Positions 7,604 through 24,518 of a DNA stretch of 40,696 nucleotides are shown here, piece by piece. Source of the DNA: a virus (taxonomy: Duplodnaviria > Heunggongvirae > Uroviricota > Caudoviricetes); the IMG/VR virus record IMGVR_UViG_3300017792_000001, positions 1-40,696 of that record, one strand, 5' to 3'. Numbering within the stretch: the stretch's first letter is position 1; every line of letters begins with the position of its first letter. The position numbers and the translations under genes are program-made. The notes under the pieces were generated by a model. That model saw only the letters and a list, made by a program, of their open reading frames with translations, was not told where the DNA came from and ran no database searches.

Positions 7604-7613
7604 AACTGTAAAC
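7604..7613 (+). promoter_or_regulatory. AACTGTAAAC motif
   Basis: Exact motif directly after a terminator, 26 nt before ATG 7640. Confidence 0.7.
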
Positions 7614-10922: not shown

Positions 10923-10929
10923 CGCGACG

Positions 10930-10953
10930 AGCCCTGCCTAGTGCGGGGCTTTT
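10930..10953 (+). terminator. intrinsic terminator
   Basis: AGCCCTGC-CTAGT-GCGGGGCT followed by TTT. Confidence 0.75.
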
Positions 10954-10972: not shown

Positions 10973-11620
10973 ATGGGCGATTGGTGTACGGGAATTGGAA
11001 GTCGAGATACCCCTAAGGAAATCTGCACACTGATGACACGCTTCGCTCGGTTGCAGCGCCGGCGCATTCGTTCTGGTGGTGCAGAAGCTGCGGATGAATC
11101 GTTTGAGTCGAACTGGAACTTGCTGCCGTATCTACCGGAACCTGCATTCCGTCAGAAGCGAGGCTGGCATCGGTATCGTGAGGAGCATCTTGAGTTTGCA
11201 GACACCATTCTGGCTCAAGTATTCCCGTACCCAATTCGTAAAGCAAAGACGCTGGCATTCTTCCGGCGCAACGTGTTTCAAGTGCTGGGTCTGTGCAGTA
11301 GTGTAAATGAGATTGTGTTGAGCGACTTCGTGATCTGCTGGACACCAGACGGCGCCGTTTGTATGGCTGATTATGAACTCGGTGTCACAGGCGGCACAGG
11401 CATCGCCATCAATATCGCAGACTTGTACAACGTACCGGTCTACAATCTCAGAAGGAATGACCATCATGCAAAAATCAGAAAGTGGTGTCGCAAGCGAGAG
11501 AACCAACTCGGCCTCCGCTTCGAGCACACCTCTGGAGTCCACTTCTACGCCAACACCGGAGAAATCTTCGATCCAGGAACGTTCGGAGAAGGAGCTGGCC
11601 TTTCAATCCTTGCTGGCTAA
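10973..11620 (+). CDS. DprA-like / SLOG-superfamily protein
   Basis: TGIGSR.TP, RSGGA.AADxxFE, DFVICWTPDG, GGTGIAI.IA..YNVPVYNL motifs; GGAG SD + CGAAC-ATG. Confidence 0.75.
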   Translation: MGDWCTGIGSRDTPKEICTLMTRFARLQRRRIRSGGAEAADESFESNWNLLPYLPEPAFRQKRGWHRYREEHLEFADTILAQVFPYPIRKAKTLAFFRRNVFQVLGLCSSVNEIVLSDFVICWTPDGAVCMADYELGVTGGTGIAINIADLYNVPVYNLRRNDHHAKIRKWCRKRENQLGLRFEHTSGVHFYANTGEIFDPGTFGEGAGLSILAG

Positions 11621-11858
11621 GTTCCACAACGCTGTCTGGGAAGAGGCTGAGAAGGGCGGTGCGTTTGACCTCGCAGGTATTGCTGAGGCCAAAGAGTTGA
11701 TCGCGATGTTCAACGGCGTGCCACCGCTGTCTGAACTCCAGGGTACTGCGTTGGTTCTCGACGCCCACCTGACTGCAAAAGAAAGTGGTCGTATCACTGG
11801 TACGTCTAACTGGGCCGGTGATATCTGGCACGCAATCAAACGCGGGTTTGCCAAATGA
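11466..11858 (+). CDS. hypothetical protein (start uncertain: ATG 11466 or TTG 11610)
   Basis: AAGGA SD 10 nt before ATG 11466; the C-terminal part fills the gap to 11855. Confidence 0.55.
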   Translation: MQKSESGVASERTNSASASSTPLESTSTPTPEKSSIQERSEKELAFQSLLAKFHNAVWEEAEKGGAFDLAGIAEAKELIAMFNGVPPLSELQGTALVLDAHLTAKESGRITGTSNWAGDIWHAIKRGFAK

Positions 11859-12202
11859 GTCGACCTACTATAGATGAAGCTGAAAGAATACACGCGCTTG
11901 CGGAAGCGGTATGCGCCAAGCTTCCAGTAGATTGTACATATTCCCTACGAAGCGGCGACCGTTATGAACGTCGCGGCCAAGCTGCAATGATCTACGAAAA
12001 ATCGACGTGCAATGACTTCTTATTCATCAGGATATGGGAGGACGGCGAGTTAGAAGTCACCGATGTTAATGTTGCGAATCCTGAATATGTAGCTATCGTA
12101 AAAGCCATCTGGGCAGAACAACAAGGCCCGGTATCTGACACGCAATCAAACGAGGATCCATCAAATGAGCAACCAAGAACTGATCAAACAACTGACCGAT
12201 GA
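11855..12202 (+). CDS. hypothetical protein, paralog of 12165-12449
   Basis: Shares KLPV, IR.WEDGE.EV and VKAIWAEQ.G with the next gene. Confidence 0.8.
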   Translation: MSRPTIDEAERIHALAEAVCAKLPVDCTYSLRSGDRYERRGQAAMIYEKSTCNDFLFIRIWEDGELEVTDVNVANPEYVAIVKAIWAEQQGPVSDTQSNEDPSNEQPRTDQTTDR

Positions 12203-12449
12203 AATGCAGAAGAAACTGCCGGTCATTCATACCTCGTCTCCGATCGTAGGCAGTAACGACGGTCGTGATTTTGTCGGCGCCCTCGTCGTTGAAACCCAGG
12301 TGCTGGAAAACGGCGCGATGATGATCATTCGTCTCTGGGAAGACGGTGAGTTTGAAGTGCGTACTACCAGCACCGTCGGTGAGCAATGCGCAGATCAGGT
12401 GAAAGCCATCTGGGCAGAACAGCGGGGACTGAGCGATGGACAAGTTTGA
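12165..12449 (+). CDS. hypothetical protein, paralog of 11855-12202
   Basis: GAGGA SD; same motifs; 20-nt identical DNA at 12101-12120 and 12402-12421. Confidence 0.8.
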   Translation: MSNQELIKQLTDEMQKKLPVIHTSSPIVGSNDGRDFVGALVVETQVLENGAMMIIRLWEDGEFEVRTTSTVGEQCADQVKAIWAEQRGLSDGQV

Positions 12450-12936
12450 GAAGGTCTGGGGTCCCGTAACGAAACACGATGGTCCAAGCGCGCTCGACAA
12501 GATCAACGTGCGTCAAGCCATCGACCACATCAAGCGTGAGATTGAACAGCGCCTCGAAGAACAGGTTGAAGCTACCAAGCGCCCTGTGACACGTCGTGGG
12601 TTTGCGATCATCAAGCGTGACGTGCTGTACACCAAGGAGCAATACGCCAAGATTCCTGGCGTTACGGTTGAAGGCGGTATCATCGACCGCTTCACAATCA
12701 CCCGTGTGCAGAATGATCGACGCTGGGTGATTCGTGCAACCATGATGTACGATGATGGTACTGAGGCGTTCGATGCTGAATTCAGCAGTCGCCGGAAAGC
12801 AGGTGCATGGGCACGCCAGATCATCCGCTTGATCTTCATCGACATTGACCTGAACGTCAAAGTAGTTCGCCCAGCAGAACGCATCGACCTGTCTGGTATC
12901 ACTTTCGTCAAGGAGGTTGCCGATGACACCCTCTGA
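12436..12936 (+). CDS. hypothetical protein
   Basis: GGGGA SD; overlaps neighbours. Confidence 0.8.
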   Translation: MDKFEKVWGPVTKHDGPSALDKINVRQAIDHIKREIEQRLEEQVEATKRPVTRRGFAIIKRDVLYTKEQYAKIPGVTVEGGIIDRFTITRVQNDRRWVIRATMMYDDGTEAFDAEFSSRRKAGAWARQIIRLIFIDIDLNVKVVRPAERIDLSGITFVKEVADDTL

Positions 12937-13390
12937 GCAAGCCACAGTTGATTTTGTCAAAGACGGACTCAAGAAGGCGCTGACTGACCTGAACGTCACT
13001 GCGCTTGATCACGCCAATGCCTCAGGTACGACACAGCGCTGGCTGGAAAACTGGATGTCAACGCTGACCGCCGACCCTAATGCGTACAAGATGCCTGTGT
13101 TCGATAGCTACGGTGTCGTGCATTACACCCCGAAAGACGGCGCAAGCAAACCACGTTACGGCTGGCAAGCAGTGCTCAACGGACCCTTGTTCGAGAGTCG
13201 CAAAGAGTTCCGTAGTCTGCGTCTCGCCAAGCGTTGGATCAAAGTGCAGATGAAGTGCAAGTGCTGGCCAATGACGACTGCCTCGGAACCAGACAAGGTT
13301 GATTCGCGTGTGATCAACATGACCATCGACTTCGAGCATGAAGGCCCGCTCGACAAGACCTTCTTGGTGAAGAATGAATCATTCCGATAA
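12923..13390 (+). CDS. hypothetical protein
   Basis: AGGAGG SD at 12911-12916 before ATG 12923. Confidence 0.8.
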   Translation: MTPSEQATVDFVKDGLKKALTDLNVTALDHANASGTTQRWLENWMSTLTADPNAYKMPVFDSYGVVHYTPKDGASKPRYGWQAVLNGPLFESRKEFRSLRLAKRWIKVQMKCKCWPMTTASEPDKVDSRVINMTIDFEHEGPLDKTFLVKNESFR

Positions 13391-13655
13391 AGCAGCGCCT
13401 GATGAAGCCAGCAGCGACAACTTCAACAAGCCGATGACGTATGCGATTGAGCAGCGCGTCCGCATGTTGGACTTTCTGCTGGCGAGTTACGGCTGGGTGC
13501 ACCGCGAGTTCTTGATGAACTACTTCGGCATCAGCATTGCGCAAGCCTCTCTGGACATCAAGCGCTACATCTGGCTTGCACCAGAAAACATTTCGTACAA
13601 CGTGAACTCGAAGCGCTATGAGGTCACAGGGGCTTTCGAGCGATTCTTTCCGTAG
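13374..13655 (+). CDS. stand-alone CapW/BrxR-type winged-helix DNA-binding protein (no WYL domain)
   Basis: QRVRMLDFLL..YG.V.RE.LMNYFGISIAQASLDIKRY..LAPENI.Y..NSKRYE.T.AF matches the N-terminal wHTH pattern of CapW-like WYL repressors; alternative start 13434. Confidence 0.75.
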   Translation: MNHSDKAAPDEASSDNFNKPMTYAIEQRVRMLDFLLASYGWVHREFLMNYFGISIAQASLDIKRYIWLAPENISYNVNSKRYEVTGAFERFFP

Positions 13656-13664
13656 GAGATTTAC

Positions 13665-13871
13665 GTGCCAAACGATCGCCCAATGATTGTCTCGGGTTTT
13701 GTCGTCTATCGCGAGTACGGGTTTCTAAATCCGCACAGCGGTGAGTATGACCTTACCCGGGACGAACACGACTGTATGACGGAAGACGAGGCAAAGAAAA
13801 CCCTCGAAGACCTCAAACAGGAATTCCCAGGAGATACGGTGTACTATGAAGTTGCCAATATCAGTATCTGA
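13665..13871 (+). CDS. small acidic hypothetical protein
   Basis: AGGAG SD, GTG start. Confidence 0.75.
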   Translation: MPNDRPMIVSGFVVYREYGFLNPHSGEYDLTRDEHDCMTEDEAKKTLEDLKQEFPGDTVYYEVANISI

Positions 13872-14337
13872 CCAGACGATGTTCGAAGTTACCAAACAGC
13901 CGATTGATACGCTGGGTAGCTTTGAGCAGACCTCGAACTCGGAGCTCGAAAAGAACATCGGTCAGCAGATCGAATTCCTGGGTGCGCGACTCCAGCTGAC
14001 TGCCAAGAACCCTCAGTGGAAGAAATTCCGCATGATGCTGGTAGACGACGTGATGCGCGCTTACATTGCCCGCAGGTTGATTCGCGTATCGGAGTACAAG
14101 GTTCATTGGTACGACAGCTACCGCATTCAGAAGCATCGTGATGGCAGCGCCACCGTCATCTGGCATGCAAGCGAAACTGGTGCTGAGTGTCGCAAAGAAT
14201 TCAAGCTGCACACCAACCTGCTGCACGCTGTTGGGCGTGATCGTTTGAACCAGTGCCCTGGCGCCGTCGTGTACAAACGCGGTAAGTATGAAATGCACCC
14301 ACACGCCGCTGTATTCCTGCTTGCGAGGCATCTATGA
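13846..14337 (+). CDS. hypothetical protein
   Basis: Fills the gap; start may be 13879. Confidence 0.7.
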   Translation: MKLPISVSDQTMFEVTKQPIDTLGSFEQTSNSELEKNIGQQIEFLGARLQLTAKNPQWKKFRMMLVDDVMRAYIARRLIRVSEYKVHWYDSYRIQKHRDGSATVIWHASETGAECRKEFKLHTNLLHAVGRDRLNQCPGAVVYKRGKYEMHPHAAVFLLARHL

Positions 14338-15245
14338 CTACTCCTCCAGAACCGAAAACCACGTGGGTAGAAAACGGCACGCGCATTGTCAGCACGGTCG
14401 AAGCTATCGTCAACACGAAAGAGAAGGCGCCGCTGCCTGCTATGGTCGTGTATCGCGAAGAAAGCGGCGAGCAGTGCGCAGAGTTTGTGGACAACTTCCT
14501 GGGCAAGCGTAAGCAGTTTGATCCAGAAGTCGGTCACGCTCCCGAAGTCGAAATCATGATGCCTGAGTTTCAGGTGTTCATCGGTACGTTGCCGGGTAAG
14601 ACTCCACCGGGCGTCAACTATTTCCTAGACGCTACCTACGAGTGCGATCCCAAAGAAGCTGAGCTTGAAGCGCGCCGTGTTATTGAAGCGACGTACAAGC
14701 GCGTCAACGGCCCGCCTGCTGGCGTGAAGAATCAACCGATCTTCGGCAAAGATTCCTGCCTGACCTTCGTGCGTCGTCAGAACGTAGACCGTACCGCTTT
14801 GCAAGATCAGTGCGACAAAGCCGGCATCAACTGGGTCGGTATTGTGCAAGGCACTCCGATGATCTGGGGCAATCGTGCGAGTGACGGCTCGTTTATTCAT
14901 CACTGGGTCTGGCTTGCGTCTTGCTTACGCTACGCCTTCCGTTGCACTGCATTCGTTCACGAAGATCCACTGGCAGGTATGAACTGGCAAGCTCACTTCG
15001 GTGACGCCTGGCGCTCCTTCCAAAGCCTTCATTGGGATCGCGCCAACGAGGCATTCCAAATCAATATCATTGGAAACGTGTTGCATTTGCGCTTGAGCGA
15101 CCACTGGTTCCTTAATCAGGCACCTGTGATGATTGTCATGCCTATCATCGGGCCTGATAAAGGCAAGATCAAACTGCCATACGTTATCCAGCAGAAGCTG
15201 CAGGCGATGTACGATATGACCAAGATTACAGGAGGTATCGCGTGA
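14334..15245 (+). CDS. hypothetical protein with degenerate DUF1653-like N-terminal domain
   Basis: GAGG SD; WV...V..IVNT...P.MVVYR..SG......DNFL aligns with the N-terminus of the next gene. Confidence 0.7.
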   Translation: MTTPPEPKTTWVENGTRIVSTVEAIVNTKEKAPLPAMVVYREESGEQCAEFVDNFLGKRKQFDPEVGHAPEVEIMMPEFQVFIGTLPGKTPPGVNYFLDATYECDPKEAELEARRVIEATYKRVNGPPAGVKNQPIFGKDSCLTFVRRQNVDRTALQDQCDKAGINWVGIVQGTPMIWGNRASDGSFIHHWVWLASCLRYAFRCTAFVHEDPLAGMNWQAHFGDAWRSFQSLHWDRANEAFQINIIGNVLHLRLSDHWFLNQAPVMIVMPIIGPDKGKIKLPYVIQQKLQAMYDMTKITGGIA

Positions 15246-16279
15246 GCGAGCTACCGAAAGTCCCCAGCAAGTGGGTGCATTACAAAGGCGCAGAGTACGA
15301 AGTCTACGACCTGCTCAATACCGATGCAGACCCAGGGCGTGAAGTAGACCACCCTGTGATCGTCTGCTATCGTGGTGCCAACGGCAAGAAGTGGGGCAAG
15401 ACCCTCGACGTCTTCCTGAACACGATGAAGCCGAAAGAGTCGGCGTGGGAAGCGCGTAAGCAACGCATTCGCTCCTTGCAGAACCAACCAGACGACAAAG
15501 AAGCGGTGATCCCTGTTGGTCGAGCGACACTCGTACCGCGCGAATTGATCAACGGTGCTTTCTCCAGCACTGAAACTGTCGAGTACCTGGTGCCAGAAAT
15601 CAAACTCTGGAGTCCGTCGCAACCTGGTGCCATCGGAGCGTTCGCGTATATACAACTTACACCAAGCAGCAACGAGACTGCGACTAACGAGGACAAACTC
15701 CAGTTCATTCGCGAACTCTGGGAGAATGGCACTGACCCAAGCAACCCACGATCTGCTTTGCGTGACACTGCGCGGTATGTCGCTGGTCGTTGGGCTGAGA
15801 AGCTCCAGCTAGGCTATTGCAACGAGGTAGCACGCGAGCGCATTCGCAACAGCCCAGTTGCATTCATTGGACTGTATCAAGGTCAGCCAATCGTCAGTCG
15901 CTGGTGTACGAGTTTTGGCGGCGATCTGGTTGAACTCACCACGTTCTTGTCGATTCTTCGACACGTCAGCCTGAAATACGCAGGTGATGTGTACGACGAA
16001 CGCCATCTGCACATGATTGCAGGTGACTTCAACCGTCTGGTACGTACCTCAGTCGCCATGGGTGCGATTCACCCGAGAAACGAACCAGCTGCCGTGGTTG
16101 ATAATCGCCATCTGCGATTCTTGTTGCCGCGTGACATCAAGGGTGATCGGGACGCAGAACCACAGTACGCTGAAACCGAATTCGTCGGCAATACGTTGCG
16201 CATCCTCTTTGATCCAGAGGTGACTGCGCTGATCGTCAACATCTTCGGCGGTGATTGTCTGAACCGGGTGCTGCTATGA
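15242..16279 (+). CDS. DUF1653-like domain protein
   Basis: GGAGG SD, GTG start; WVHYKGAEYEV...VIVCYR...GKKW.K.LDVFL is the DUF1653 pattern. Confidence 0.75.
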   Translation: MSELPKVPSKWVHYKGAEYEVYDLLNTDADPGREVDHPVIVCYRGANGKKWGKTLDVFLNTMKPKESAWEARKQRIRSLQNQPDDKEAVIPVGRATLVPRELINGAFSSTETVEYLVPEIKLWSPSQPGAIGAFAYIQLTPSSNETATNEDKLQFIRELWENGTDPSNPRSALRDTARYVAGRWAEKLQLGYCNEVARERIRNSPVAFIGLYQGQPIVSRWCTSFGGDLVELTTFLSILRHVSLKYAGDVYDERHLHMIAGDFNRLVRTSVAMGAIHPRNEPAAVVDNRHLRFLLPRDIKGDRDAEPQYAETEFVGNTLRILFDPEVTALIVNIFGGDCLNRVLL

Positions 16280-16896
16280 ACAAGCTGTCGGACTTCACCA
16301 AGAAGAACATCATCGACGACAAGACCGGTGTTGAAGGCGGCTACGTCAAGAACGTGAACGACAGCGGCGGTGAAACCAATCACGGCATTACCGCTGCGCT
16401 GGCGAATGACTACAAGAAGCAACTGGTCAACCTGTATTCGTGGGATGGGAAGATGATCAACCTGTCCCTGACCATGGCGTACTATCTGTACGAGACGCAT
16501 TTCTGGAAGCGCATGTACTGCGACGATCTGGCGAAGCGTCACCCGCTGTTTGCCGACAAGCTGTTCGACATGGCAATCAACATGGGCGTGACAACTGCCG
16601 GCGGTTACTTCCAGCAGATCCTGAATGCCAACAACAATCAAGGCGCGCTGTATGCAGACCTGAAAGTTGACGGCTACATGGGTCCGACCACGCTCAAGGC
16701 TCTGGACGCATTTGTTGCGAAACGGGGTGCGGAGGGCATAAATCGCGCTTTGTGTGCTCTGCTTGCTGAGCAAGGACACCACTACCTAAACCTGGTCCAA
16801 ATGCGTGCAAAGGACGAGGAATTCTACTACGGATGGGCAGGTCGGGTGAGCCGTGACATGCTGATCTACATGAACGTGCTGGGGGTAAAAGCATGA
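16276..16896 (+). CDS. glycoside hydrolase family 108 muramidase with C-terminal peptidoglycan-binding domain (putative endolysin)
   Basis: EGGYV.N.NDSGGETNHGIT catalytic motif; FD.AINMGV..A...FQ..LN; LKVDG.MGP.TL.AL. Confidence 0.9.
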   Translation: MNKLSDFTKKNIIDDKTGVEGGYVKNVNDSGGETNHGITAALANDYKKQLVNLYSWDGKMINLSLTMAYYLYETHFWKRMYCDDLAKRHPLFADKLFDMAINMGVTTAGGYFQQILNANNNQGALYADLKVDGYMGPTTLKALDAFVAKRGAEGINRALCALLAEQGHHYLNLVQMRAKDEEFYYGWAGRVSRDMLIYMNVLGVKA

Positions 16897-17333
16897 CAGA
16901 CAAGCCGAAAATAGGAACCGCATGGAAGTTGGGTGACGACACGATCATCGTCATCAGCGTCCAGGTTGCGCAAAACTTCGACGAGCCCGGCTACCCAGAA
17001 GTACCGCTTGTTGGCTTCGTTCGTCTCGGTGGGTGTCCAGAAGGCGAGCGTAAAGAACGCTTCACTACCCTGAAGCGCTTCCACGAGATTGCAACGCCGA
17101 ACAGAACAGCGCGCACTGCATATGCACCGTATCTCGTTGATCGCGCTGACGGATGTAAAGGTCACTATGCTATCGGTCGTTGGAATCCTGGCGGCTACCA
17201 AGAAGTCTGGAATCTACGCGCACATTGCTGGACGGCAGCGAGTGATGAAGTGCTGACACTGGAAGAAGCGACCAAGATGCTGGAGTCGATTAGCTTCCAC
17301 CCAATGACACCGAGCATACGGAGTCCGCAATGA
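16893..17333 (+). CDS. hypothetical protein
   Basis: GGGGG SD, ATGA overlap. Confidence 0.75.
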   Translation: MTDKPKIGTAWKLGDDTIIVISVQVAQNFDEPGYPEVPLVGFVRLGGCPEGERKERFTTLKRFHEIATPNRTARTAYAPYLVDRADGCKGHYAIGRWNPGGYQEVWNLRAHCWTAASDEVLTLEEATKMLESISFHPMTPSIRSPQ

Positions 17334-17758
17334 CTATTCAACGCACGACGCTGCACGGCCACAAAGCCACACGTCGCATCAAGTGGTACAACCCAAAGTC
17401 GATCTGGGATAAAGATGGCGAGCAGTACATCAACGTTTTCGTGATCGCGATCATTGAGGAAAAGGGTTTCGAGTTGTTTGCTGTGACTGCGCAACTCGGT
17501 ATCGACGGTCGTGGTCGTCACGTATTACCGCACAGCATAGTTGCACCGAAAGGTCGCTTTGCTTACGGCGGTAAGAGCGAAGGTACCACAGTGATCTATG
17601 CTGTCGGCGCACCTGTCGGTCGGCTTGAAGAAGCGGGGCGTGAGCTAGTTGCGGGTCTCAACAAGATGACAGTGCGCGATATGTGGATGCCTCCAGTGGG
17701 TGTTAAGCGCGGACAGATTCAAATCCCTTCACCAGAACACATCAGGACTCCAGTATGA
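17330..17758 (+). CDS. hypothetical protein
   Basis: GGAG SD, ATGA overlap. Confidence 0.8.
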   Translation: MTIQRTTLHGHKATRRIKWYNPKSIWDKDGEQYINVFVIAIIEEKGFELFAVTAQLGIDGRGRHVLPHSIVAPKGRFAYGGKSEGTTVIYAVGAPVGRLEEAGRELVAGLNKMTVRDMWMPPVGVKRGQIQIPSPEHIRTPV

Positions 17759-18228
17759 AACAGCAGAACCTGGAAATCGACGCATCCCAAACCTTTCTCG
17801 CCCGTCTGTTTGCGACTGTGCTGGCGCCTTTCTTCGGGCAGCGTGTTGACGACGTGAACCTTCGCGAAATGAACGCGGCTATGGTCAGCGCCAACATTGA
17901 CCCGATCTTCGCAACCAACATCGAAGTAACGGTCAACGACGAATGCATACGCGGTTCGTTTGAAGTCGCGGTATCGTTCACGCACGGCGGCAGTCAAGAC
18001 AAGGCCATGATCTACGTCACCGAAGCTGACTTGGGTCTTGGTGAAGTTAGCGCACTGGACGAGTATGCCGCTGCTATTGAACTGCACGGTGCTCGACTCT
18101 CTGCGCTCATGGACAAAGCGCGTAGCTGCCCGGCTGACCAGCGCATGGTGAGTCTCGCACACACCAATCTCCAGCAAGCGTTCTTCTGGTTGCGTGAAGC
18201 ACACAAGGAGCCGAAGCATGGGTACTGA
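17755..18228 (+). CDS. hypothetical protein with C-terminal Acb2-like helical hairpin domain
   Basis: C-terminal DL...EV...D.....IELHG.RL.AL.DK.R..P.DQR.VSLAHTNLQQAF..L..A..EP resembles Acb2-family sponges; key ligand residues appear substituted. Confidence 0.55.
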   Translation: MKQQNLEIDASQTFLARLFATVLAPFFGQRVDDVNLREMNAAMVSANIDPIFATNIEVTVNDECIRGSFEVAVSFTHGGSQDKAMIYVTEADLGLGEVSALDEYAAAIELHGARLSALMDKARSCPADQRMVSLAHTNLQQAFFWLREAHKEPKHGY

Positions 18229-19090
18229 ATTCTTTCCCGATGATACGGTGCAGTATCGCATCCAGATCATCGTCAACCAGTATCACGATCACCACCTGGC
18301 AGCCGTAACCAAGCAGAAGATTCAGGATCAGCTTAACCGCGACATCCCTGTCTACTGTGCTGCCAAGCTGGTGGTTGCCGACGACGAGGCACTTGAAAGC
18401 CACGGCGCCATTCGTGTGACGTGTGAAGTTCGCGGGGAGAAGCGCAGCTATGAGGTGTTCGCGCAGCACCAAGACGAAATGCCAATGTTGCCTCCGCTTT
18501 CTGTAGAGGAGCTTGCCGAGTCAAGCGCAATCTGGGAAGCAAAGCGCAAGCCGCCCGCGAAAGTTGTGATGATCTTGGCTATCGCTGAGAACAACGTCAT
18601 CGGTAAAAACGGTGCATTGCCTTGGCACATCCCCAACGACCTGAAGTTCTTCAAAGATCAGACCACGGGTCAACCTCTGGTCATTGGTCGTCGCACGTAC
18701 TGGAGCATGCCGAAGTCCGTTTGGAAGACACGCTATGCCAACGTGTTGACCTCCGACATCGAAAGCGTGTGCATGCCAGATGCTGGACAATGGCACGTCG
18801 GCGGCTGCATTCGTTCCATGGTGAACATGGCGAAGGTCAACTACAACGCCGACACCGTGTTCATCGCTGGTGGTAAGCGAGTCTATGAGGATGCGCTGCG
18901 TTACGATCTGGTCGATGAAATCCTGATCAGCCACGTCAAGGGCGACTTCGAAGGCAACGTCAAGCTTGAACTCGATCTGGACTTCCTGGGTTTCAGCGAG
19001 GGTGTCGTCGAACTCGAAGATCCACAGTTCACTGTGAAGCGCTACATTCGCCAGCGCGGCGCCAAGTTTGGAGTAGATACCAATGAATGA
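18218..19090 (+). CDS. dihydrofolate reductase with ~115-aa N-terminal extension
   Basis: AAGGAG SD; ILAIAENNVIGKNGALPWHIPNDLKFFKDQTTGQPLVIGRRTY and FIAGG..VY DHFR motifs begin at ~18563. Confidence 0.88.
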   Translation: MGTEFFPDDTVQYRIQIIVNQYHDHHLAAVTKQKIQDQLNRDIPVYCAAKLVVADDEALESHGAIRVTCEVRGEKRSYEVFAQHQDEMPMLPPLSVEELAESSAIWEAKRKPPAKVVMILAIAENNVIGKNGALPWHIPNDLKFFKDQTTGQPLVIGRRTYWSMPKSVWKTRYANVLTSDIESVCMPDAGQWHVGGCIRSMVNMAKVNYNADTVFIAGGKRVYEDALRYDLVDEILISHVKGDFEGNVKLELDLDFLGFSEGVVELEDPQFTVKRYIRQRGAKFGVDTNE

Positions 19091-19364
19091 AGTTCCACCA
19101 CCAGAGCACGCAGGTAACGAGAACTGGAAGCCCTTGCTCATGTTCACTGACCAGAGCCCATCGTTTGCTTACGGTGCTGAGTTCGGCATGATCTATGAGC
19201 GCCTGTCTTCGAAGACGTTCAAACCTCAGGCCGTGCGTGTCGAGAACCAGGAAGTGCTGAAAGCTGCGGCTGCCCACTTCGGTCACGTAGCAGTGTTCAC
19301 CGAGAGCGAAGTCGAAGGTTGGCTGTTCATGGATCTGGAGCCCTTCAAGCTGTCTGTCGTATAG
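19083..19364 (+). CDS. hypothetical protein
   Basis: GGAG SD; overlap with upstream stop. Confidence 0.8.
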   Translation: MNEVPPPEHAGNENWKPLLMFTDQSPSFAYGAEFGMIYERLSSKTFKPQAVRVENQEVLKAAAAHFGHVAVFTESEVEGWLFMDLEPFKLSVV

Positions 19365-19373
19365 GAGACCGTC

Positions 19374-19727
19374 GTGCCAAAGAAAAGCGAAAAGATCAAA
19401 CTCAACTCCATCTTATTCATCTATGAAGTCTTCGGTGACAGCGCCCTGATCTTCTTCATTCCTGACGGTAACACGCTGGACAAGACGGTGCGTATCGCTA
19501 TGCGGACAGCGCGCAACACATTCAGCAACGGGGATGAACTGACCACAGAGCAAGAACTGGCCCACGACGTTCTCAACGCCGCCATGACCGACGATGAAAA
19601 CGCGAAGGGACTGGATCACATTCACATGCCCTTTGCTGGGCTGCTACTGCCGTTCAAAGTGACAGACCAGAAAAGTTTGCAGTCCAGCGCGAAGCTGAAC
19701 TACGTGCGCTGTGGAACATACGCCTGA
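19374..19727 (+). CDS. hypothetical protein
   Basis: AGGAG SD, GTG start; followed by a terminator. Confidence 0.8.
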   Translation: MPKKSEKIKLNSILFIYEVFGDSALIFFIPDGNTLDKTVRIAMRTARNTFSNGDELTTEQELAHDVLNAAMTDDENAKGLDHIHMPFAGLLLPFKVTDQKSLQSSAKLNYVRCGTYA

Positions 19728-19730
19728 CAG

Positions 19731-19754
19731 AGGGGAGCTATATGCTCCCTTTCT
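19731..19754 (+). terminator. intrinsic terminator (similar to 24363-24387)
   Basis: GGGAGC-TATAT-GCTCCC stem followed by TTTCT. Confidence 0.7.
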
Positions 19755-19769
19755 CAGGTCCCCACAGCG

Positions 19770-19894
19770 AGATACCTGAACTATAAACATAACCGTTAGA
19801 GTGGTTGTACTACTGATTGCAGTAGTGTATAATGAACTTACGAGAGCTAACCCGAGCAGACTGCTTACTGGTTACGCGCTTAGGTTAGGTTACT
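19770..19894 (+). repeat. 125-bp regulatory cassette, copy A
   Basis: Homologous to 24394-24518; end boxes 24/25 and 21/25 identical between copies; the two boxes are imperfect inverted repeats of each other. Confidence 0.9.
19805..19833 (+). promoter_or_regulatory. sigma70 promoter with palindrome in the spacer
   Basis: TTGTAC-17 nt-TATAAT with extended TG; ACTACTG-ATTG-CAGTAGT inverted repeat overlaps the -35 and spacer. Confidence 0.85.
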
Positions 19895-24393: not shown

Positions 24394-24518
24394 AGATACC
24401 TGAACTAAAAACATAACCACTAACCCCATTGTACTACTGATCACAGTCGTGATATAATGAATCACGAAAGCGAAACCGAGACAGCTACATACTGGTTACG
24501 CACTTAGTTAAGGTTACA
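24394..24518 (+). repeat. 125-bp regulatory cassette, copy B
   Basis: See copy A; same 25-75-25 bp architecture. Confidence 0.9.
24429..24458 (+). promoter_or_regulatory. sigma70 promoter with palindrome in the spacer
   Basis: TTGTAC-18 nt-TATAAT; ACTACTG-ATCA-CAGTCGT near-palindrome. Confidence 0.8.

Follow-up and report, generated by a model that had tools for sequence, protein, structure and literature searches.

A stand-alone BrxR/CapW-type winged helix in a large phage genome: a candidate sensor-less DNA binder

WYL-domain repressors are the best-understood switch by which the expression of anti-phage defences is raised after DNA damage or a failed infection, and single-stranded DNA (ssDNA) is the signal that releases one of them, CapW, from its DNA. 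The locus studied here raises the question of what a phage does with the DNA-reading head of such a repressor when no sensor is attached to it. The window, a stretch of 40,696 nucleotides, is the first 40.7 kb of the complete 277,601-bp virus record IMGVR_UViG_3300017792_000001 (Caudoviricetes; 123-bp direct terminal repeats, 53.6 % G+C), and it contains a 93-residue open reading frame (ORF) at 13374-13655 that a first-pass annotation, made from the letters alone, had proposed as a decoy repressor of host defence operons. Our study identified this ORF as a gene for a winged helix-turn-helix (wHTH) of the BrxR/CapW type, belonging to a family that retains the DNA-reading head of the WYL repressors, has shed the sensor and is phage-borne for the most part.

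The identity of the domain was seen in sequence and in structure comparisons. A phmmer search against all Protein Data Bank (PDB) chains gave as best match CapW of Pseudomonas aeruginosa PA17 (7tb5_A, E=5.3e-11, query residues 11-93 on chain residues 11-92), followed by CapW of Stenotrophomonas maltophilia (7tb6, 5.5e-5), BrxR (7qfz, 2e-4), CapW (9c5g, 4e-4) and BrxR (7t8k, 2e-3), and all matches were to CapW or BrxR save for a single one at chance level (E=1.6). A profile built from 20 stand-alone relatives reached 7tb5 at E=4.4e-18. The AlphaFold2 model (predicted local distance difference test, pLDDT, 90.3) has a disordered 20-residue tail, then three helices and a two-stranded wing, and Foldseek placed it on the wHTH of 7tb5 with a root-mean-square deviation (rmsd) of 0.5 Å over 71 columns at 38 % identity, on 7tb6 with 0.6 Å and on all BrxR chains with 0.7-1.2 Å, the overall range being 0.5-1.2 Å over 69-75 columns for 7tb5, 7tb6, 7qfz, 9c5g and 7t8k. 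All of the 12 top Foldseek matches were CapW or BrxR, and the next fold class began at E=1e-2. PF26109 (WHD_BrxR) is the precomputed Pfam match on the protein's own cluster and on both orthologue clusters. When the 93-residue protein was compared by hmmscan with PHROGs, PADLOC, NCBIfam and a Pfam set that did not include the PF26109 model, no match was found at E<=10; these scans were blank because that model was absent from the set used, not because the protein has no family. The phage protein is a member of the PF26109 WHD_BrxR domain family. The first-pass annotation had read the N-terminal wHTH pattern of CapW-like repressors in a quoted peptide, which corresponds to residues 28-88, and this reading is borne out by both sequence searches; the structural comparison that it had proposed, and the profile comparison on which it had let its claim depend, also led to CapW and BrxR.

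What the protein lacks is larger than had been proposed. It stops at the last residue of the head, directly after the wing. In CapW of Rhizobium leguminosarum the head (residues 1-70) is followed by a linker (71-136), the WYL domain (137-193) and the WCX domain (193-297) (PMC11662680), and since the phage ORF ends where the winged helix ends, the two linker helices are missing as well as WYL and WCX. The earlier statement that the sensor is absent therefore stands, but its placing of the stop at the point where WYL would begin does not, as the stop comes already at the end of the winged helix. When 19 full-length relatives were compared by tblastn with the whole 277,601-bp phage, their first ~70-90 residues aligned at 13374-13652, and nothing credible was found for linker, WYL or WCX, the other matches being scattered with E-values of 0.07-10. 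A split gene with its WYL domain encoded downstream was considered and ruled out, as the two products encoded there, of 68 and 163 residues, have no family match and the full-length relatives do not align to that region. The phage protein falls outside the CapW/BrxR regulator family, since it lacks two of the domains that define the family as well as the genomic setting that defines it.

Orthologues of 93-96 residues, with 73 %, 61 % and 55 % identity, are found on further large phage contigs, where the order of the genes is conserved. Among four diverged jumbo-phage orthologues, all of which kept this length, the pairwise proportion of non-synonymous differences (pN) was 0.17-0.32 against a saturated synonymous proportion (pS) of 0.60-0.79, and the ratio of the corresponding rates (dN/dS) was 0.10-0.31; the winged-helix ORF is a real gene under purifying selection. 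A tail of 20-23 residues rich in D and E precedes the domain in all four of these orthologues, its character kept and its sequence not, whereas in most of the remaining family the tail is absent and the protein begins with the domain itself. A pseudogene, or a recent truncation of a captured host CapW, was ruled out by the kept length, the dN/dS values, the lack of any WYL remnant and the composition of the clade, which is short throughout.

The extent of that clade was estimated by an exhaustive hidden Markov model (HMM) search over 1.84 billion representatives, which returned 876 matches. The 45 best after the query's own cluster were short proteins ending at the wing, save for one protein of 3815 residues with eight partial stretches; many of the short matches measure 73-80 residues and begin M-x-YA[VI]EQRLR, and the first full-length protein (291 residues) appeared at 2e-13. 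Among the best 150 matches, short forms accounted for ~100 of the clusters at 50 % identity. A word-based search for longer relatives returned none, but this is the less sensitive method, since the HMM search did reach full-length relatives. In a quick maximum-likelihood tree of the domain, with branch support from the Shimodaira-Hasegawa-like approximate likelihood-ratio test (SH-aLRT), the query fell within a 69-row clade (SH-aLRT 92) composed purely of stand-alone proteins of ~73-130 residues, and all 19 full-length rows fell outside it. The few short rows placed beside full-length ones in this quick tree have very short branches and may be fragments, and the stand-alone clade is as diverse in it as the full-length one. 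Within the clade the domain is C-terminal and carries the motif YA[VI]EQR[LIV]R.(I/L)DFLL..YG, for which the query has YAIEQRVRMLDFLLASYG before stopping at the wing.

A search of IMG/VR built on a 20-row alignment found 67 loci encoding a relative, and in 62 of these the protein stops 0-11 residues past the domain; in two it stops 32 and 48 residues past it, and three encode full-length proteins. The carriers range from 7-kb fragments up to seven contigs of 228-315 kb and comprise lytic, temperate and jumbo phages, with T4-like phages among the virulent ones. When 185,579 species genomes were scanned with a strict pattern, eight loci emerged, and the three examined were situated in prophages or on a phage-like contig. 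In the ESM Atlas, WHD_BrxR accounted for 20 of the 30 nearest clusters, and three listed clusters of 85-96 residues were 57-69 % viral. Cultured phages (INPHARED) yielded a single match, gp88 of Stenotrophomonas phage Sonora (QYW02189.1, 75 residues, 'hypothetical protein'), and the literature that we searched contained no description of a stand-alone or phage-borne BrxR/CapW head. Judged from these sequences, the clade is old and phage-borne for the most part, rather than a recent truncation of a host gene.

In a few family members an XRE-type helix-turn-helix is fused N-terminally to the BrxR-type winged helix. One of them (P0005; L008:2565-3002, + strand, 145 residues; HTH_3/HTH_19) thus has two DNA-binding heads without a sensor. 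It lies between integrases and beside a large primase, on an element of ~46 kb that was found in at least 15 contigs.

The four DNA-contact residues established by mutagenesis of CapW are all retained in the phage protein (R44, S54, Q57 and S59; Table 1), and R44 is nearly invariant across a 116-row alignment. In S. maltophilia (Sm) CapW the substitutions R32A and S42A/Q45A/S47A abolish operator binding, the equivalent Escherichia coli mutants also abolish repression, and an arginine at the Sm R32 position is typical of CapW and not of BrxR (Blankenchip et al., PMC9122588). The stretch DIKRY (residues 61-65) is identical to that of Acinetobacter BrxR, in which its K46 and R47 contact DNA; R38 of that protein, which makes base-specific contacts, is replaced by Ile55.

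Full-length CapW and BrxR are domain-swapped dimers held together by linker, WYL and WCX, with their heads side by side on a palindrome of ~20-25 bp, and the first-pass annotation had cautioned that a head without these domains may need a partner in order to bind. This caveat was answered in part, by a model. A two-copy complex prediction paired the protein with itself through the head, in a symmetric interface, at a score of 0.59 against 0.02 for the best control, a mark that was reached by 20 of 30 proteins solved as same-chain pairs and by 1 of 23 proteins whose structures are single chains; at least 85 % of contacts were common to the runs, and the partner pLDDT was at least 82. These values express model confidence only, and the score may derive from solved CapW/BrxR dimers that the predictor had learned, so that the prediction is compatible with a self-sufficient head dimer and is not proof of one. 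As a separate observation, blastp clustering of ORFs showed two stand-alone wHTH paralogues in tandem in six of the 67 IMG/VR loci, an arrangement that suggests heterodimers like PafB/PafC.

We favour, with a probability of roughly 0.4, the reading that the gene product is a sensor-less, constitutive, dimeric DNA binder, likely a repressor, and that its target tends to lie outside the core programme of the phage. The protein would pair with itself and sit on a two-fold symmetric DNA site of ~20-25 bp, and would contact this site with the recognition-helix and wing residues that CapW and BrxR also use; that it binds DNA as a dimer is, in our judgement, probable. Since linker, WYL and WCX are absent, ssDNA could not release the protein, and binding would be constitutive once it is made. 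Transcription would be repressed by occupation of a promoter, a mode of action that we consider somewhat favoured. The target would reside on the chromosome of the host or on a mobile element present in the same cell, and defence promoters under WYL control are one possible subset; such a non-phage target is put forward tentatively, and a target consisting specifically of CapW/BrxR-type defence operators is unlikely. Our lean towards a target outside the phage is slight, and a target within the phage follows it closely. Among the neighbours of the gene and of its relatives, the Acb2/Tad1-like, Lar-like, orphan-methyltransferase and MvaT/H-NS proteins described below are compatible with host take-over or anti-defence.

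Several points weigh against this reading. What we say of the target we infer throughout, and the binding site itself is predicted. The predicted dimer interface is small, at 13 contacts, and the palindrome scan of the phage genome given below would miss imperfect or single operators in it. A search for all BrxR-type heads covered five bacterial genomes in which a prophage or phage contig bears a stand-alone copy: three of them encode no full-length BrxR-type regulator, and the regulators of the other two (Dechloromonas and Paraburkholderia) have different recognition helices (for example SMPQATNDIRTY vs SEPAATKDLSMY), loss of the Q57 equivalent being among the differences. The operators of CapW/BrxR proteins differ between systems, with sites of 19, 21, 24 and 25-27 bp, and as the clade is itself old and coherent, one conserved phage protein is unlikely to fit the operators of many hosts. 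In the E. coli system that has been tested, CapW-mediated induction was not needed for CBASS protection (PMC9122588), so that blocking induction may bring little benefit.

These points bear hardest on the strict form of the decoy idea, in which the phage protein copies the specificity of a host CapW or BrxR, occupies the same operator and holds off the genes of cyclic-oligonucleotide-based anti-phage signalling systems (CBASS), bacteriophage exclusion (BREX) or other islands even when ssDNA accumulates. Among solved structures the phage protein comes closest to CapW of P. aeruginosa, the species that the type phage PaBG infects, and the recognition helices are nearly the same (SIAQASLDIKRY in the phage protein vs SVPQASLDITEY in P. 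aeruginosa CapW); the arginine typical of CapW is retained, and a protein resembling the Acb2/Tad1 sponges is encoded nearby. A recent study found that WYL-mediated derepression primes cells against phage counter-defences (10.1101/2025.11.13.688357), which would give such a decoy a plausible pay-off. However, the S-x-x-Q-A-S helix is a family-wide feature and not a sign of shared specificity, the nearest relatives are other stand-alone phage proteins and not host regulators, and a matching full-length regulator was absent in five of five lysogens with a stand-alone copy. We consider the strict decoy unlikely, and the comparison argues against strict operator mimicry as a general role of the family, although prophage members may differ in interest from virulent ones. 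It seems similarly doubtful that the stand-alone proteins form a dedicated phage family of signal-blind repressors which, during infection, hold the expression of CBASS, BREX and other inducible defence islands down to its basal level, a counter-defence that would act by silencing transcription and not by inhibiting a protein.

Small HTH and wHTH proteins of phage early regions mostly regulate phage genes, and the ordinary alternative to a non-phage target is that the protein does the same: a dimer on one or a few imperfect sites of its own genome, tuning the timing of accessory genes in the manner of Cro, Ner or Aca-type proteins, with no role against the host. This is a possible explanation, which we hold to be less probable than the one favoured above. 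The gene lies within a long co-directional block, in temperate members (L100) it has an early-operon position downstream of a cI/Cro-like pair, and the diversity of the stand-alone clade, equal to that of the full-length one, agrees with its having long evolved on its own as a phage transcription factor. The search for a matching operator gave a different picture. A scan of the whole phage genome for repeated palindromic operators (9-bp arms, <=1 mismatch, spacer 0-8) found that only terminator hairpins recur, and palindromes were fewer than in controls (208 sites vs 307 and 346 in Markov controls). The sole repeated palindrome associated with promoters, ACTACTGATNNCAGTNGTG, has five copies in this genome and four in the more distant relative L013, but also five in PaBG. 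PaBG is syntenic with the present phage around the site (HD hydrolase, DprA/SLOG protein, muramidase, dihydrofolate reductase) and has no wHTH homologue even at E<=10, and the wHTH gene is thus accessory and dispensable within the group of PaBG-like jumbo phages to which the present phage belongs. Further points against a phage-directed regulator are that no neighbour or gene set is conserved over 60 viral loci and that about half of the family members lie too close to the upstream gene (<=20 nt) to leave room for an autoregulated promoter.

The same comparison bears on the early promoters. In the host-type early promoters (TTGyAC-ACTACTGATnnCAGTnGTG-TATAATGA) the spacer is conserved in sequence and not just in spacing, as was observed in this phage, in a 228-kb relative (G001) and in PaBG. 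Since PaBG has the element and lacks the wHTH gene, the wHTH protein is not a general reader of these promoters, and another factor, or RNA polymerase itself, must read the spacer element. The protein is accordingly disfavoured as the binder of the boxed early promoters or of the spacer palindrome, a motif that PaBG has five times, and the suggestion of the first-pass annotation that it might bind tandem sites such as the cassette boxes loses ground with it.

Should the favoured reading hold with a WYL-controlled promoter as target, the protein would be the first counter-defence that locks the transcription of defence genes in the off state, and it would offer a ready means of preventing the induction of WYL-controlled promoters; if phage genes are regulated instead, the family hints at where the DNA-binding module of CapW and BrxR may have come from. 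It is large, conserved and testable with a 93-residue protein under either reading.

Excisionases are also small winged helices, and a role outside transcription has been weighed, either as an architectural or recombination-directionality-type DNA binder, or as a protein binder that either poisons the CapW/BrxR heads of the host or uses its acidic tail to dock on another partner. In ~7 of 60 viral loci, and also in L098, an integrase or resolvase gene is found no more than two genes away from the wHTH gene, the acidic disordered N-terminal tail is common to the jumbo-phage orthologues, and H-NS/MvaT-like neighbours occur in three unrelated contexts. Virulent jumbo and T4-like carriers, however, do not need an excisionase, conservation falls on the DNA-contact residues, and since full-length dimers are held by linker, WYL and WCX, a free head should compete poorly. 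We regard such a role as very improbable.

Set beside known systems, the phage protein shares with the CBASS repressor CapW (PA17, 7TB5; S. maltophilia, 7TB6; R. leguminosarum, 9C5G) the N-terminal winged helix and the R/S/Q/S contacts, and binding to a palindrome as a dimer is the behaviour expected from this likeness. It differs in having no linker helices, no WYL ssDNA sensor with its RWHVR motif and no WCX, and in its sequence motif (YA[IV]EQR[LIV]R..DFLL..YG, vs W..RRLEFIDFRL.W.G in CapW). BrxR of BREX and defence islands (Acinetobacter, 7T8K/7T8L; Escherichia fergusonii, 7QFZ) belongs to the same domain family and shares DIKRY in the case of Acinetobacter, but has the R38 that the phage protein lacks, together with the sensor and dimerization domains. 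Unlike the genes of both regulators, the phage gene is not beside a defence operon and has no promoter or palindromic operator of its own; it is phage-encoded and falls in a separate clade. Sonora gp88 is the one cultured counterpart, with 52 % identity over residues 23-93; it is likewise stand-alone, overlaps its upstream gene and lies in a run of small early genes, but it has no acidic N-terminal tail, belongs to a 64-kb siphophage and not a jumbo phage, and is uncharacterized, so that it offers no functional anchor. Aca proteins are also small, sensor-less phage DNA-binding dimers among accessory and anti-defence genes. Aca genes directly follow an acr gene, behind a strong inverted-repeat promoter that they repress, whereas the phage wHTH gene has neither promoter nor inverted repeat, its nearest anti-defence-like gene is 4.1 kb away, its flanking genes belong to no family and its HTH is of another class. 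CapW, BrxR and Aca all regulate their own promoters, and the stand-alone wHTH gene has none.

Table 1. Coordinates of the wHTH gene, its parts and surrounding features (window positions unless another sequence is named)
Feature	Position	Strand	Details
Stand-alone BrxR/CapW-type winged-helix gene	13374..13655	+	ATG start, 93 aa, stop 13653-13655; from ORF list and sequence
N-terminal tail, ~20 residues, acidic, predicted disordered	13374..13433	+	Mean pLDDT 55 (residues 1-10) and 72 (residues 11-20)
Winged helix domain, residues 21-93	13434..13652	+	Helices 23-39, 44-51 and 55-68; wing strands 73-76 and 81-84; DSSP on model
Predicted homodimer interface, residues 34, 38-39, 43, 46, 49-50	13473..13523	+	End of helix 1 and helix 2; two-copy complex prediction
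DNA-contact residues R44, S54, Q57, S59	13503..13550	+	Align with Sm CapW R32, S42, Q45, S47 (phmmer alignment, offset 12)
Upstream gene, 157 aa	12917..13390	+	End overlaps wHTH start by 17 nt; no Pfam/PHROG match
Downstream acidic protein, 68 aa	13665..13871	+	GTG start, AGGAG Shine-Dalgarno; 10 nt past wHTH stop; no family match
Intrinsic-terminator-like hairpin, upstream end of block	10929..10951	+	9-pair stem, 6 G-C pairs, T tract
Acb2/Tad1-hairpin protein, 157 aa	17755-18228	+	Residues 106-146 match PF24729, E=5.6e-8, 33.3 bits vs curated cut-off 27
Spacer-element copies	19809-19827, 24433-24451; genome 42303, 54415, 207942		PaBG (KF147891) 4453, 5160, 20624, 116542, 255137

The immediate surroundings of the gene are listed with its parts in Table 1. 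Its overlap with the upstream gene leaves it without a promoter or operator of its own, and a 155-156-residue version of that upstream gene precedes the wHTH gene in the related contigs L002-L007. The gene for the 68-residue acidic protein comes next, with a spacing that is the same in the window and throughout L002-L007, and in the more distant L013 a 92-residue gene stands in its place; the acidic protein could be a partner of the wHTH protein. Both genes belong to a conserved co-directional block at 10973-19727, the wHTH gene to its variable part, and this block a second terminator-like hairpin, read by eye at ~19733-19754, closes. A scan of the + strand from 7.5 to 19.7 kb for sigma-70-like promoters found none besides a weak match at 7613, and none between the upstream hairpin and the ATG at 10973. 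The block also carries a GH108 endolysin, the Acb2/Tad1-hairpin protein and dihydrofolate reductase. The Acb2/Tad1-hairpin gene lies 4.1 kb downstream of the wHTH gene and is syntenic in L002-L005, and the N-terminal 100 residues of its product gave no match. Neither megablast of the region at 12-16 kb nor tblastn of a 471-residue window protein found a match among cultured phages.

Across the 60 non-redundant viral loci, blastp clustering, Pfam and PHROGs detected no conserved neighbour family. The annotated neighbours in other phages are integrases, resolvases, orphan DNA methyltransferases, two Lar-like restriction-alleviation proteins and one MvaT-like silencer domain. Such neighbourhoods do not point to a fixed module; they are those of an accessory gene that is mobile and sits in early or host-interaction regions.

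In three phage or prophage contexts that are unrelated to one another, a xenogeneic-silencer domain of the H-NS/MvaT type was observed beside or near the stand-alone wHTH gene, possibly by chance. One is a 101-residue H-NS-family gene directly upstream of the wHTH gene (L010:4684-4989, +), another an 800-residue ParB-HTH-H-NS fusion three genes upstream of it (L098:4209-6611, +), and the third a neighbour with MvaT_DBD.

The genes of 157, 163, 303 and 345 residues that flank the wHTH gene (12917-13390 and 13846-16279, +) belong to no Pfam family. The 303-residue and 345-residue products and a 146-residue one (16893-17333) match different parts of phrog_4767 (505 positions), as if an ancestral gene had been split or shuffled, and the 345-residue protein has only a DUF1653-like N-terminus in common with PaBG gp43. 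Finally, the 277.6-kb genome has five copies of the 12-mer AACTGTAAACTG against ~0.03 expected, at window positions 1717, 7604 and 40370 and at genome positions 220362 (+) and 153449 (-). The three window copies lie 9-28 nt upstream of a start codon, which makes the 12-mer a candidate phage-specific promoter or leader element, and the copy at 7604, located after a terminator, may drive transcription towards the block that bears the wHTH gene.

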